A stretch of DNA of 64,000 bases from Gammaproteobacteria bacterium. Lineage in GTDB: Bacteria; Pseudomonadota; Gammaproteobacteria; Eutrophobiales; Eutrophobiaceae. The notes below the pieces were generated by a model. That model did not search any database, had not been told where the DNA came from, and saw only the letters and a list, made by a program, of their open reading frames with translations. Position 1 is the stretch's first letter; every line of letters starts with the position of its first letter. The stretch lies in assembly GCA_965222155.1 (NCBI GenBank), contig CBDCTH010000004.1, positions 544,001 through 608,000 on the forward strand, given 5' to 3'. Positions 16,668 through 52,165 of this stretch are shown piece after piece. Made by a program: the position numbers and the translations under genes.

Positions 16668-17001
16668 CGAATTACCCCAGATTCCGAGTAAACGATACTT
16701 TACCATTGGGGAAGTCAGCGAGTTATGTGCGGTTAAGTCCCATGTATTACGCTACTGGGAACAGGAATTTCCTCAACTGAAACCCCTGAAGCGGCGTGGC
16801 AACAGACGTTATTATCAGCGCCAGGACGTTATATTGATCAGGCAGATCAGAAGTCTGCTTTATGAGCACGGGTTTACTATCGGCGGCGCGCGGCAACGTC
16901 TTTCAGGCGATGAAGCCAAGGAAGATTCCAACCAGAGCCAGCAGATTATCCGCCAGTTGTGTGCTGAACTGGAAAAAGTCAGGGAGTTGTTACGGCGTTA
17001 A
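16645..17001 (+). CDS. MerR-family transcriptional regulator
   Basis: [13 protein letters not shown]...[10 protein letters not shown]; conserved ihfA-MerR-tRNA-Pro synteny. Confidence 0.93.
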
Positions 17002-17242
17002 CCCGGATTTCTCACCAGTTGGTGCGATGATCGCGCCGGATTTTTGCCGCCAGCGGGTGCCTGCGACCGAAAGCATAGCCGTAGCTATGGTTGAGGGAGC
17101 ATGTGCCCGCTGGCGGCAAAAAGACAAGCGAGGGCGCATCAAGCGCAGTCTGTGATGACGAAATACTGCAAGTATTATCATAACTTATTGATAGCAGAAA
17201 GTATCCGATGGAAACAAGCGAACTGGTGAGAAATCCGGGTTG
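16999..17242 (+). mobile_element. Family B structured MITE-like element, copy 1
   Basis: Terminal IR AACCCGGATTTCTCACCAGTT / AACTGGTGAGAAATCCGGGTT; inner stems; homologous to 43961, 49530, 51921. Confidence 0.85.
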
Positions 17243-17381
17243 ATTCCAATCGCTGTATCGTTTCACGTCATGTCGGCAAACGTCGGCATTCTGTCACAGC
17301 TTATTCCTCGTCTGGCGTCTGCTTACGACATGAAGAGACGAACTCAGGACTATGGTAATCCGGGGGGAGTGTCTGAAAGAT

Positions 17382-17564
17382 TTAAGGAAACTCTGAACAA
17401 GTCCATTCCCGTATCAAGTACGGGACAGGCTCTGGACTTGTCAGAGCACGGAAAACAAAAATGCGATTTTTGTTTTCCTGACAAATTCAATGACTTTTTG
17501 TCATTGAATTTGGCGATACATCCCTGTATCGCAGGAACCTCTGACTTAATCAGAGGTTCCTTAA
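17382..17564. mobile_element. Family C MITE-like element with consecutive hairpins and TTAA flanks
   Basis: TTAA-GGAAACTCTGA ... TCAGAGGTTCC-TTAA; partial reverse-complement copy at 38618-38694. Confidence 0.7.
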
Positions 17565-17574
17565 ATAATACGGC

Positions 17575-17651
17575 CGGGGCGTGGCGCAGTCTGGTAGCGC
17601 ACTGCAATGGGGTTGCAGGGGTCGGAGGTTCGAATCCTCTCGCCCCGACCA
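17575..17651 (+). tRNA. tRNA-Pro(GGG)
   Basis: CGGGGCG/CGCCCCG acceptor stem, anticodon arm CTGCA-AT-GGG-GT-TGCAG, TTCGAAT, CCA. Confidence 0.96.
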
Positions 17652-17699
17652 ATTCACAGTTATACTTCGCTTTTCGGGAATTAAGAATACAAAATCAAG

Positions 17700-18236
17700 A
17701 TGCTGAAATCATCATTTCTCTTATTCATTTGCCTGGCCCTGTTAACCGCCGGGTGCGGTACGGAGAAGACCGCGCGCCAGGCATTTGAGGCTGGAGATTA
17801 CATAACCGCGTATAACCTGTTCAGGCCCAGAGCCGAGGCCGGCGATAGCGAGGCGCAAAATTACCTGGGCGTGCATTATTATCTGGGCCTGGGTGTAAAA
17901 CGGGATTGGCACCAGGCACTGCAATGGTATGATAAAGCGGCAAAACAGGGAGACCCCAAGGCTCAACTCAACTATGGCCTGATGTTCCATAACGCCTATG
18001 GTACGGACAAGGACATCGTTGCGGCTTTTATGTGGTATTACGCTTCCTACCGGCAGGGCAATGCGATTGCCGCGCGTTATATGAATTCTCTGGCGGCAGA
18101 TAACCTGCTGAGTCCGAACCAGATAAATTATGCCAAGCTCCAGGCAAAAAAATACATCACCAACCCCGTAGTTGCGGAGCAAGGCTCAGAAGGCAGATTG
18201 TTTCGCGGTCAGCAACAAACCGCGGTCAGCCCGTAA
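17700..18236 (+). CDS. Sel1-repeat lipoprotein
   Basis: Lipobox LTAG-C; two Sel1 repeats ([15 protein letters not shown]...[18 protein letters not shown]). Confidence 0.85.
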
Positions 18237-49525: not shown

Positions 49526-49529
49526 GTTT

Positions 49530-49898
49530 TAGCCCGGATTTCTCACCAGGTGATGCGATGATCGCGCCGGATTTTTTGTGTCAGCGGGTGCCGGAGCCTG
49601 CCCCGTACTTGATACGGGGACCGAAAGCATAGCCGTAGCTATGGTTGAGGGACAAATCGTCAGGACTGACGATTTGCACGGCGACAGCCGCCCGCAGGGT
49701 TGCGCCCAGAGCCTGCCCCTGTATGGAGTTGAGCAGGGGGATGGGCGCAATGAACATGTACCCGCTGACACAAAAAAGACAAGCGAGGGCGCATCAAGCG
49801 CAGTCTGTAATGACGGAGTATTGAGAATATTACCATAACTTATTGACAGCAAACATGTTGCCGATAGCAACCAGCGACCTGGTGAGAAATCCGGGTTA
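49530..49898 (+). mobile_element. Family B element, copy 3, with nested insertions
   Basis: TTAG-CCCGGATTTCTCACCAGG ... CCTGGTGAGAAATCCGGG-TTAG; extra segments at 49593-49618 and 49653-49753 relative to other copies. Confidence 0.88.
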
Positions 49899-49939
49899 GA
49901 CCCCGGCAATCCCCGGTCGGATCCGGTCATGGTGAAAAC

Positions 49940-50398
49940 GTGTACAAACAAAGAGAGACCCTGGATGCGTTGTTAAAACCCGTGATTGTGGATTTGGGTT
50001 ATGTGTGCTGGGGAATTGAACACTTGAGGAAGGGCAACGTTTCACTGCTGCGTATTTATATTGACAGAGAGCCCGGGATTACACTGGAAGATTGTGTAAC
50101 AGTGAGCAACCGGGTATCCGGCATACTGGATGTTGAAGATCCAATCGCCGGTGAATACCAGCTGGAAGTTTCATCACCTGGTTTGGACCGGCTGTTATTT
50201 ACCCCGACCCAGTATGAACAGTTTATTGGAGAGACGGTAAAAATCAACTTATCCGGGACCTATGAACAGCGCAAACGCATTACAGGTCGTATAGAAAGAG
50301 TAACTGGAGAGACGGTTATCCTGAATGAGGCGGGCAAGGAATTCCATATTCCTCTGGATGAAATAGACAAGGCAAGAATAGTACCCCGGGAGTATTAA
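49940..50398 (+). CDS. rimP: Ribosome maturation factor RimP
   Basis: LRIYID, LDVEDPI..YQLEVSSPGLDR. Confidence 0.96.
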   Translation: MYKQRETLDALLKPVIVDLGYVCWGIEHLRKGNVSLLRIYIDREPGITLEDCVTVSNRVSGILDVEDPIAGEYQLEVSSPGLDRLLFTPTQYEQFIGETVKINLSGTYEQRKRITGRIERVTGETVILNEAGKEFHIPLDEIDKARIVPREY

Positions 50399-50410
50399 TG
50401 AGTTATTTCA

Positions 50411-51916
50411 ATGAATAAAGAAATTTTGATGGTAGTGGACGTGGTGTGCAACGAAAAAGGCGTTGCCAAGGAGATCATATTCGAAGCCATTGAAGCTGCG
50501 TTGGCCAGTGCAACGAAAAAACGCTCGCGTGAAGATATCGAAGTGCGGGTCGCCATCGACCATGAAACAGGCGACTATGAAACGTTCAGGCAATGGGAGG
50601 TGGTTGAAGACAACCCGGAACCCCTGGAGTTTCCCACCCGCCAGATCCAGCTGTCTGACGCTACGGCAAAAGAAAATGACATAGAGGCCGAAGATTTTAT
50701 CGAGGAACCCATGATGTCGGTCGAGTTCGGCAGGATCGCAGCGCAAAGCGCAAAACAGGTGATTATGCAGAAGGTACGCGAAGCTGAGCGTAAGCAGGTC
50801 TTTGATGCGTATATCGATCGGGTCGGCGAGATGGTCATCGGTTTTGTGAAAAAGGTGGAAAGGGGCAATGTCTTCCTGGATTTGGGCGGTAATGCCGAAG
50901 GGTTCATACCCAGAGATGAAATGATCCCGAGGGAAGCGGTCAGGCCACGGGATCAGATCCGGGCTTATTTACGTGAAGTGAAACCTGAAAACAGGGGACC
51001 GCAGTTATTTCTGAGCCGGACGGCTGCGGAGTTGCTGATTGAACTGTTCAAAATCGAGGTGCCTGAGATCAATGAAGGTCTGATCGAGATTATCAATGGC
51101 GCACGCGACCCGGGTTCCAGGGCAAAAATTGCGGTAAAAGCCAATGATCCCAGGATTGACCCGATTGGCGCCTGCGTCGGGATGAGAGGCTCAAGGGTAC
51201 AGGCAGTTTCCAATGCGCTGGGTGGTGAGCGGGTCGATATCATACCCTGGGACGAGAATCCCGCACAATTTGTCATTAATGCCATGGCGCCGGCTGAGGT
51301 GGTATCAATACTGGTCGATGAGGACAGCCACAGCATGGACGTTGCAGTGTCCGAGGAGAACCTGTCGCAGGCGATTGGCCGAGGCGGCCAGAATGTCAAG
51401 CTTGCCAGTGAATTGACGCGCTGGGAACTGAATGTCATGTCGGTTGAGCAGGCGGATCAGAAGACTGAATCCGAGGCACAGGTGCTGCAGAAGATGTTTA
51501 TGGAAGAGTTGGATGTGGATGAAGAAATCGCAGTCATCCTGGTACAGGAGGGATTTTCCAGTGTTGAAGAAATAGCGTATGTCCCCGAGAATGAGATGGT
51601 GGATATAGAAGAGTTTGATGAAGATTTGATAAGGGAACTGCGCGACCGCGCCCGGGATATCATGCTGACCCGCGCCATCGTCAACGAGGAAAAACTGGCG
51701 GACGTCAAGCCGGCAGACGACTTATTGGAGATGGAAGGTATGGATGAGGCATTAGCTTATGAGCTGGCCGTGCGCGGCGTGGTCACCATGGAAGACCTGG
51801 CTGAAAAATCAGTAGATGAATTGGTTGAAATCGAGGGCCTGGATAAAGTCCGGGCAGGTCAACTGATTATGACCGCGCGTATTCCCTGGTTTGCAGCGGA
51901 AGAAATCAACGGTTAG
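50411..51916 (+). CDS. nusA: Transcription termination/antitermination factor NusA
   Basis: MNKEIL, FGRIAAQSAKQ, ACVGMRGSRV, AIGRGGQNV. Confidence 0.98.
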   Translation: MNKEILMVVDVVCNEKGVAKEIIFEAIEAALASATKKRSREDIEVRVAIDHETGDYETFRQWEVVEDNPEPLEFPTRQIQLSDATAKENDIEAEDFIEEPMMSVEFGRIAAQSAKQVIMQKVREAERKQVFDAYIDRVGEMVIGFVKKVERGNVFLDLGGNAEGFIPRDEMIPREAVRPRDQIRAYLREVKPENRGPQLFLSRTAAELLIELFKIEVPEINEGLIEIINGARDPGSRAKIAVKANDPRIDPIGACVGMRGSRVQAVSNALGGERVDIIPWDENPAQFVINAMAPAEVVSILVDEDSHSMDVAVSEENLSQAIGRGGQNVKLASELTRWELNVMSVEQADQKTESEAQVLQKMFMEELDVDEEIAVILVQEGFSSVEEIAYVPENEMVDIEEFDEDLIRELRDRARDIMLTRAIVNEEKLADVKPADDLLEMEGMDEALAYELAVRGVVTMEDLAEKSVDELVEIEGLDKVRAGQLIMTARIPWFAAEEING

Positions 51917-51920
51917 AGGA

Positions 51921-52165
51921 TGGCTCGCATTTCTTGCCAGGTGATGCGATGATTGCGCCGGATTTTTTCTGTCTGCGGGTGCCTGCGACCGAAAGCATAA
52001 TGGTACTTATGGTTGAGGGAGCACGTGCCCGCAGACAGAAAAAAGACAAGCAAGGGCGCATCAAGCGCAGTCAGTAAGAGCGAGATAGTAAAGAATGTAT
52101 ATTAACTCATTGACAAAGAATGAATATCAGGCGGCATCCAGCGGCCTGGTAAGAAATGCGAGCTA
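51921..52165 (+). mobile_element. Family B structured MITE-like element, copy 4
   Basis: GGCTCGCATTTCTTGCCAGG ... CCTGGTAAGAAATGCGAGCT; fills almost the whole nusA-infB gap. Confidence 0.85.

Follow-up and report, generated by a model that had tools for sequence, protein, structure and literature searches.

Family B in the analysed window

The window analysed here, a 64-kb stretch of a gammaproteobacterial genome (G000:C4:544001-608000), harbours four copies of a short non-coding repeat, hereafter called family B. Family B is a miniature inverted-repeat transposable element (MITE) of the IS1380 type, with a 120-nt rod-like cassette as its core. The copies and their parts, in window coordinates, are as follows.

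17002 to 17239, plus strand: copy 1, 238 bp end to end
17021 to 17140, plus strand: rod cassette of copy 1, 120 nt
17181 to 17193, minus strand: predicted integration host factor (IHF) word of copy 1, a consensus match with 0 mismatches, ~48 nt from the terminus that corresponds to the insertion sequence (IS) left end
43964 to 44202, plus strand: copy 2, 239 bp, between an nlpD-like gene and rpoS, flanks CTAG and CTAA, cassette 43983-44102
49533 to 49895, plus strand: copy 3, 363 bp, between a tRNA gene and rimP, cassette 49552-49795 including inserts
49593 to 49618, plus strand: small nested hairpin insert A of copy 3
49651 to 49751, plus strand: nested hairpin insert B of copy 3
49708 to 49738: insert C, inside insert B
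51924 to 52162, plus strand: copy 4, 239 bp, between nusA and infB, flanks ATGG and CTAA, cassette 51943-52062

All four copies lie where the initial annotation had placed them, and every stem and motif it quoted was recovered in the sequence. Its size estimate of ~245 bp suits copies 1, 2 and 4 but not copy 3, which is longer because of two nested inserts. Copy 1 is flanked by TTAA (16998-17001), which contains the stop codon of a MerR-family gene, and by TTGA. Its cassette comprises helices 20-25/134-139, 30-33/127-130 and 40-59/102-121, with two tandem G·A loops in the apical part.

Copies 2, 3 and 4 are missing from the orthologous site in most congeners. The site orthologous to copy 1 is empty in the related genome G019, with a further small deletion, and the copy 2 site lacks the element in 20/20 other loci from the genus. 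Copy 3 has an orthologue in G019 and is skipped in contigs of a related strain (run X7), which lack 367 bases and have 4 shared letters. At the copy 4 site, G014 harbours the same insertion minus the cassette and G002 an independent insertion, and the site is empty in the remaining 20/22 genomes, one of which (L052) was scored from a short contig.

Family size and orientation

BLAST searches of the genome yielded 191 loci; when terminal repeats were paired, 88 elements resulted, of which one is spurious. The 87 end-to-end copies range from 54 to 590 bp, are non-coding and have terminal inverted repeats of 17-19 bp. By BLAST, the 239-bp form was found in 20/22 congeners, 2/14 other genera of the family and 0/24 other families, and a plasmid collection gave no match to the element. 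According to crude gene calls, 53/88 copies are located at most 30 nt from a predicted gene end.

The four window copies are all in the sense orientation relative to their host genes, as initially reported. This does not extend to the genome as a whole, where copies between co-directional genes show no orientation bias (24 sense and 31 antisense, p = 0.42), and the shared sense in the window is therefore ascribed to chance. The motifs described as invariant are so in the four copies but not family-wide, TATGG being often replaced by TCTGG or TACGG, and GACAAG by GACCAG. The apical stem is the weakest, with a T-C at pair 75/86 in 44/87 copies. In G010, two loci (L113 and L112) consist of head-to-tail arrays of two and three copies, respectively, with a 243-bp spacing and one 4-mer at the joints.

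Family B shares its ends with IS1380 elements

The ends CCCG(C/G)AT(A/T)TCTCAC and the YTAR flanks of family B are found on IS1380 elements (NF033539, PF13701) in this genome and in six congeners. In this genome, the same ends with CTAG on either side bound two 1768-bp elements (99.55% identical, one stop codon), and a third element with a frameshift. Elements with open reading frames and these ends are present in G002, G004, G005, G007, G019 and G021, and one of them scored 394 bits against the IS1380 model NF033539 (cut-off 180). Resident IS1380 elements answer the earlier suggestion to look for a transposase with the same termini. Of the two affiliations initially proposed, IS1380 is borne out by the ends, the flanks, the IHF-like site and the empty sites; IS5 was set aside since IS1380 accounts for the ends, and no IS5 search was made.

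The IHF-like words noted at 17181, 44143, 49836 and 52103 match WATCAANNNNTTR with 0, 1, 1 and 1 mismatches, respectively, and are predicted binding sites. Across the family, the word is found at position 48 from the right end with at most one mismatch in 63/87 copies (5.0 expected), and 18/18 IS1380 elements read have a consensus word at positions 59-60 of their left end. These positions indicate that the right end of the MITE corresponds to the left end of the IS, with the word one helical turn closer to the terminus. The IHF word is common to both types of elements; in contrast, family B has no transposase gene and carries the rod cassette, for which there were 0 matches in two sets of 23 and 12 full IS1380 loci.

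Exact 4-bp direct flanks were identified for 33/88 copies (10.8 in shuffled controls), and insertion results in a net gain of 4 bp at 23 clean filled/empty pairs. The YTAR-like flanks and the TTAG repeats reported around copy 3 are confirmed, with an exact TTAG duplication at both sides and a single TTAG at the empty site of G014. The flanks are exact in 15/18 IS1380 copies, more often than in family B, the IS copies being younger. An empty orthologous site was found for 1/16 IS copies, the others being too diverged. In the whole genome, CTAG is depleted tenfold, and TTAG and CTAA fourfold, although IS copies are flanked by CTAG more often than by any other word.

We also observed a second IS1380 subgroup (L320, L324, L327, L330, L333 and L336 in G018; L024) with CCC(T)AATCCCGC ends, variable flanks of 4-5 bp and no IHF word.

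Covariation is largely written by arm-to-arm correction

The predicted fold of copy 1 has a z score of -12.2, which none of 200 shuffled sequences equalled. Covariation was analysed in 87 distinct core copies, 25 from this genome and 62 from relatives, and every one of the twelve top-ranking column pairs is a Watson-Crick pair within a single rod. In a set of 40 cassettes, 97% of the cells are paired, 19 pairs display two-sided changes (9.8 when shuffled), and the score is 0.247, as opposed to at most 0.06 when the alignment is slid. The compensatory changes first noticed in the four window copies are thus real and hold across many copies.

Changes counted by parsimony over 45 pairs on tip branches amount to 99 double and 76 single ones with a tree built from unpaired columns, or 61 and 66 with a tree from all columns. 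We infer that independent mutation cannot produce double changes at such a frequency on branches of ~0.06. Comparison of three filled orthologous pairs showed that fixes occur in place. Copy 3 and its G019 orthologue differ by four core substitutions, three of which convert G·T to A-T in the 3' arm within 11 nt. The element at C12:2894519 differs from its orthologue by two compensated pairs, with one state found in 0/87 copies, and by four single changes, and the third orthologous pair has no stem changes. Such in-place compensation is the mark left by template switching at quasipalindromes, a process that perfects inverted repeats in bacteria (PMC7202029, PMC5941160). The covariation is therefore genuine but largely written by arm-to-arm correction in the DNA, and compensation taken alone provides no evidence for a functional RNA.

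Correction extends into the target duplication

We compared 23 clean filled/empty pairs between this genome (G000) and G019. On the G019 side, 12/23 pattern hits were used, after discarding two filled sites, one false hit, six without both flanks and two with indels. On the G000 side, 11/24 elements whose site fell within the retrieved regions were used, after discarding four filled sites, eight remnants or deletions, and copy 2, which was removed by the ungapped filter. Filled and empty sites differ at 61/184 letters of the flanking 4-mers, at 25/184 letters of positions 5-8 and at ~6% farther out. Only 8/23 empty sites match YTAR. Outgroups indicate at five sites that the letters of the empty site are ancestral, most clearly at L153, where CAGG is found in four genomes and the filled site has CTAG and CTAA.

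Where exact duplication of the target already paired the two positions adjoining the element, 22/22 remained unchanged, and where it left a mismatch, 22/24 became Watson-Crick pairs, 18 of them through one change. The outer pairs are uncorrected, and five non-consensus target letters were retained. It thus appears that the hairpin is extended by two pairs into the duplication during or after insertion.

Neutral turnover of YTAR words was considered as the source of the flank differences and rejected, since 20.5% of control sites are non-YTAR and 2.2% have at least two mismatches (n = 453), compared with 15/23 and 6/23 empty sites. For coding CTAG sites alone, these proportions are 71% and 5.9% (n = 34), and some of the single-letter cases might therefore be partly explained by turnover.

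An alternative bearing on the junctions only, which we consider unlikely, is that IS1380 acts like piggyBac and that 4-nt donor overhangs overwrite an imperfect target. Like piggyBac, family B has ends of the form CCC...GGG and a 4-bp target resembling TTAA; piggyBac leaves 4-nt donor overhangs (PMC7351741 and 10.1101/015289), and IS1380 serves as its outgroup (PMC10813416). In addition, some sites are altered on both sides to the consensus, as in CAGG to CTAG/CTAA. In contrast with piggyBac, the target of family B is a degenerate YTAR, and inheritance of overhangs was not seen, as the flank letters do not track the element tree (p = 0.91-0.93, against p < 0.001 for internal columns). Other observations at odds with overhangs are that the target's own outer pair is kept at 10/10 informative sites, that changes reach right positions 5-6 (14/46) and that at least some flank changes are selected by the host, such as the new GTG start codon for trmD at L147.

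L147 and two other G019 insertions, L153 and L158, fall in the first codons of genes; in the latter two, read by eye, the element end is able to provide an in-frame ATG.

The rod appears to be constrained beyond correction

Correction alone is insufficient to account for the 120-nt inner rod. On tip branches, the cassette loops have 2.4 substitutions per column and the A+T segment 7.6, a threefold difference. The element has a strand polarity: on one fixed strand, G·T mismatches outnumber A·C on tips (43:16, p = 0.0006, or 36:15), and inner branches have 7-11 of the former and 0-1 of the latter; restricted to this genome, the excess is less marked, at 61:33. A net mutation bias that would match it is absent from unpaired columns (16.4 and 18.5 per 1000), though C>T alone exceeds G>A. 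The same strand folds better in 85/87 copies with RNA energies, by a mean of -13 kcal/mol, and in 81/87 with DNA energies. Copies without the cassette each have unique breakpoints, two of them having formed in place, and a 158-bp form that consists of the cassette without the A+T segment has an empty orthologous site and has therefore moved. The slow loops, the one-strand excess of G·T and the presence of the core in three kinds of ends (see below) point to a selected single-strand fold. Accordingly, the initial view that conservation of structure over sequence denotes a functional fold stands for these features, but not for the compensation, much of which arises by correction in the DNA.

The cassette occurs within the ends of several transposase families

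In this genome, the cassette was not found outside the IS1380-type shell: 165 profile hits correspond to 136 within paired ends and 29 decayed copies or fragments. To survey other genomes we used covariance models. Full-length matches to model R1 were obtained in 9/150 other families of the class and in 17/150 genomes of the phylum, 15/36 in one family listed outside Gammaproteobacteria. The broader model R2, whose alignment was fitted to the structure, matched in 20/150 other families of the class and 18/56 genomes of a third class, with 24-64 candidates scored per genome. A pattern scan yielded 70 loci, including one record titled Thermodesulfobacteriota. Cassette length is conserved, at 119-124 nt in 45 distant copies. 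In all three classes TCGC and GACAAGC retain ~90% conservation, whereas the sequence of helix 40-59 has been replaced in full.

Most matches sit within IS1380-type ends of several subtypes, and G067 has an IS1380 whose ends resemble one of these subtypes. A second shell, with GG(A/G) ends and 3-bp flanks, makes up elements of 156-163 bp in G267, G271, G342, G259, G283, G140, G134 and G143, the last of which has two shell types. In G267, the shell end is that of a metagenomic ISAzo13 (NF033519) element (L442), with 22 identical nt and 3-bp TNA flanks. ISAzo13 was confirmed at 2/38 loci with an 18-mer of this end, and the shell family in genomes other than G267 is assigned by likeness only. Lastly, G175 carries the cassette twice in TA|TACCC ends.

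At L367 in G267, the apical loop of an ISAzo13-type element harbours a nested MITE, whose ends are of a third kind and whose rod is related. A reading frame at L382 was considered as a transposase and, judged by eye, is not one.

Proposed mechanism and alternatives

On balance, we lean towards a reading in which family B contains a portable single-strand fold that would help MITEs move, with a cognate IS1380 transposase probably acting in trans. Judging from the sequences, such an element would be built of a left end, the 120-nt rod cassette, an optional A+T segment with the IHF site, derived from the IS left end, and a right end. During replication, or when the element transposes, one strand would fold back as a hairpin or cruciform; the resulting rod, constant in length, would bring the two ends into pairing. 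One arm could then be copied onto the other by template switching or by repair of the hairpin, which would generate double changes and allow the two ends to drift in concert. Beside helix 30-33, the conserved internal loop might raise the chance of being moved whichever transposase is at work, which could explain why it is kept and shared. Switching of ends could take place through this joint drift or through nesting, as at L367.

A bolder proposal, which we put forward tentatively, is that the rod is a transposase-independent mobility module. It would be a polar fold of single-stranded DNA (or of RNA) whose conserved loop recruits a host or helper protein. Across Pseudomonadota, it would have acquired the ends of three or more unrelated transposase families, and its self-correcting arms would let both ends change in step and thereby switch transposase.

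Several observations weigh against mobilization by a portable, self-correcting fold. Every IS1380 copy with these ends in this genome is broken, full IS1380 elements move without the cassette, and no ISAzo13 gene was found in five draft genomes that carry the second shell. There is no bias between leading and lagging strands (24:25, with 27 unclear and a weak skew). Unlike in unbiased copying, correction of the flanks always ends in AR|...|YT, non-consensus letters having turned to consensus in 20/21 cases. Stem pairs T·G and G·T at 57/104 and 58/103 are conserved although repair should erase them, and gene conversion between copies may imitate some of the double changes.

It is also conceivable, though improbable in our opinion, that the cassette is a functional RNA, a protein-binding or RNase site for which the MITEs are kept or spread. 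The better folding of one strand with RNA energies, the G·U-rich stems with tandem G·A loops and the conserved length would suit an RNA, and MITE transcripts are known as RNase III or RNase E substrates (PMC10969869). Nevertheless, DNA energies favour the same strand, and there is no orientation bias relative to host genes. The G·T excess follows the element's own strand, antisense copies having it in the same direction (22:13 versus 19:7), and the 158-bp form lacks the A+T segment that could hold a promoter. Rfam gave no match for the window at the gathering score, just two unrelated eukaryotic models for copy 1 at E <= 10, and none for 20 distant loci at E <= 0.05. No catalytic-core motif was recognized either, and the catalytic RNA envisaged at the outset finds no support. 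The RNA run X16, which comprises contigs only (share 0.11), is uninformative on expression.

That the cassette is a mere passenger, an old hairpin with functionless loops that owes its pairing solely to template switching and its spread between shells to nesting and deletion, seems least probable: arms are corrected in place, template switching is known to perfect such repeats and hairpin modules nest freely in one another here, but the slow loops are not 'perfected', TCGC and GACAAGC persist over the three classes while a helix is replaced, and the strand asymmetry requires a single-strand filter.

Relation to known elements

Correia/NEMIS elements of Neisseria differ from family B in their ends and have TA as their target. 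Set against them, family B has no sense bias. According to the accessible text of a review, they are also short MITEs with an IHF site and a stem-loop, found at gene ends, and no inner module shared across transposase families is described there (PMC10969869); the same text describes no IS1380 MITE. The ISAzo13-type ends that bound the cassette elsewhere are not the shell of the window copies.

ERIC elements contain nested inserts at fixed places. One of the cassette-bearing families has ERIC-like TA|TACCC ends, whereas family B has IS1380 ends. Like family B, ERIC forms a single long stem-loop, according to the accessible text of PMC2267715; neither there nor in that of PMC3281130 is the element described. 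We considered membership of ERIC and rejected it: with the broad model, two copies in 88 kb of E. coli K-12, which we take to be ERIC, gave partial matches of 13.4 and 12.8 bits (E ~0.4-0.6). The best E. coli match, full-length but weak (21.4 bits, E = 0.002), is an intergenic repeat between pyrH and frr (L395:22646-22764), presumably RSA-like. We found no description of the element in the literature on IS1380 or ISAzo13 MITEs, subscription journals and ISfinder being outside the search.

Family B is thus a MITE, a known kind of element, and is out of the ordinary in two respects, a core common to several transposase families and covariation that is written by repair as far as the flanks. Bacterial MITEs are usually regarded as stripped copies of one IS, with an interior of no account. 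A core common to MITEs with IS1380, ISAzo13 and TA ends says instead that the interior is the older unit and that the ends are exchangeable, and it opens to direct test, in transposition assays, the old question of what preserves the folds of stem-loop repeats. The filled/empty pairs show that DNA repair can write covariation, even into a target duplication, which calls for caution in RNA-motif screens and when target preference is inferred from flanks.

Nested hairpins and other features of the window

Insert A of copy 3 is not present in the G019 orthologue and occurs in another repeat family too, while inserts B and C are both known outside family B. As inserts vary between orthologous copies, they are still moving. 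Genome-wide, insert B has 41 occurrences within paired family B ends and 18 elsewhere, at several fixed sites and also in other repeats. A second hairpin repeat family, with ...CAAGTCC...GGACTTG... arms, is present at ~17350-17480 and 38600-38700 in the window and also bears insert A; more copies of it are located at C12:1574312 and C4:494140. Finally, positions 3290-9307 of the window encode a 2005-residue protein with RTX calcium-binding repeats and a 588-bp tandem repeat, which resembles large RTX adhesin-type proteins.

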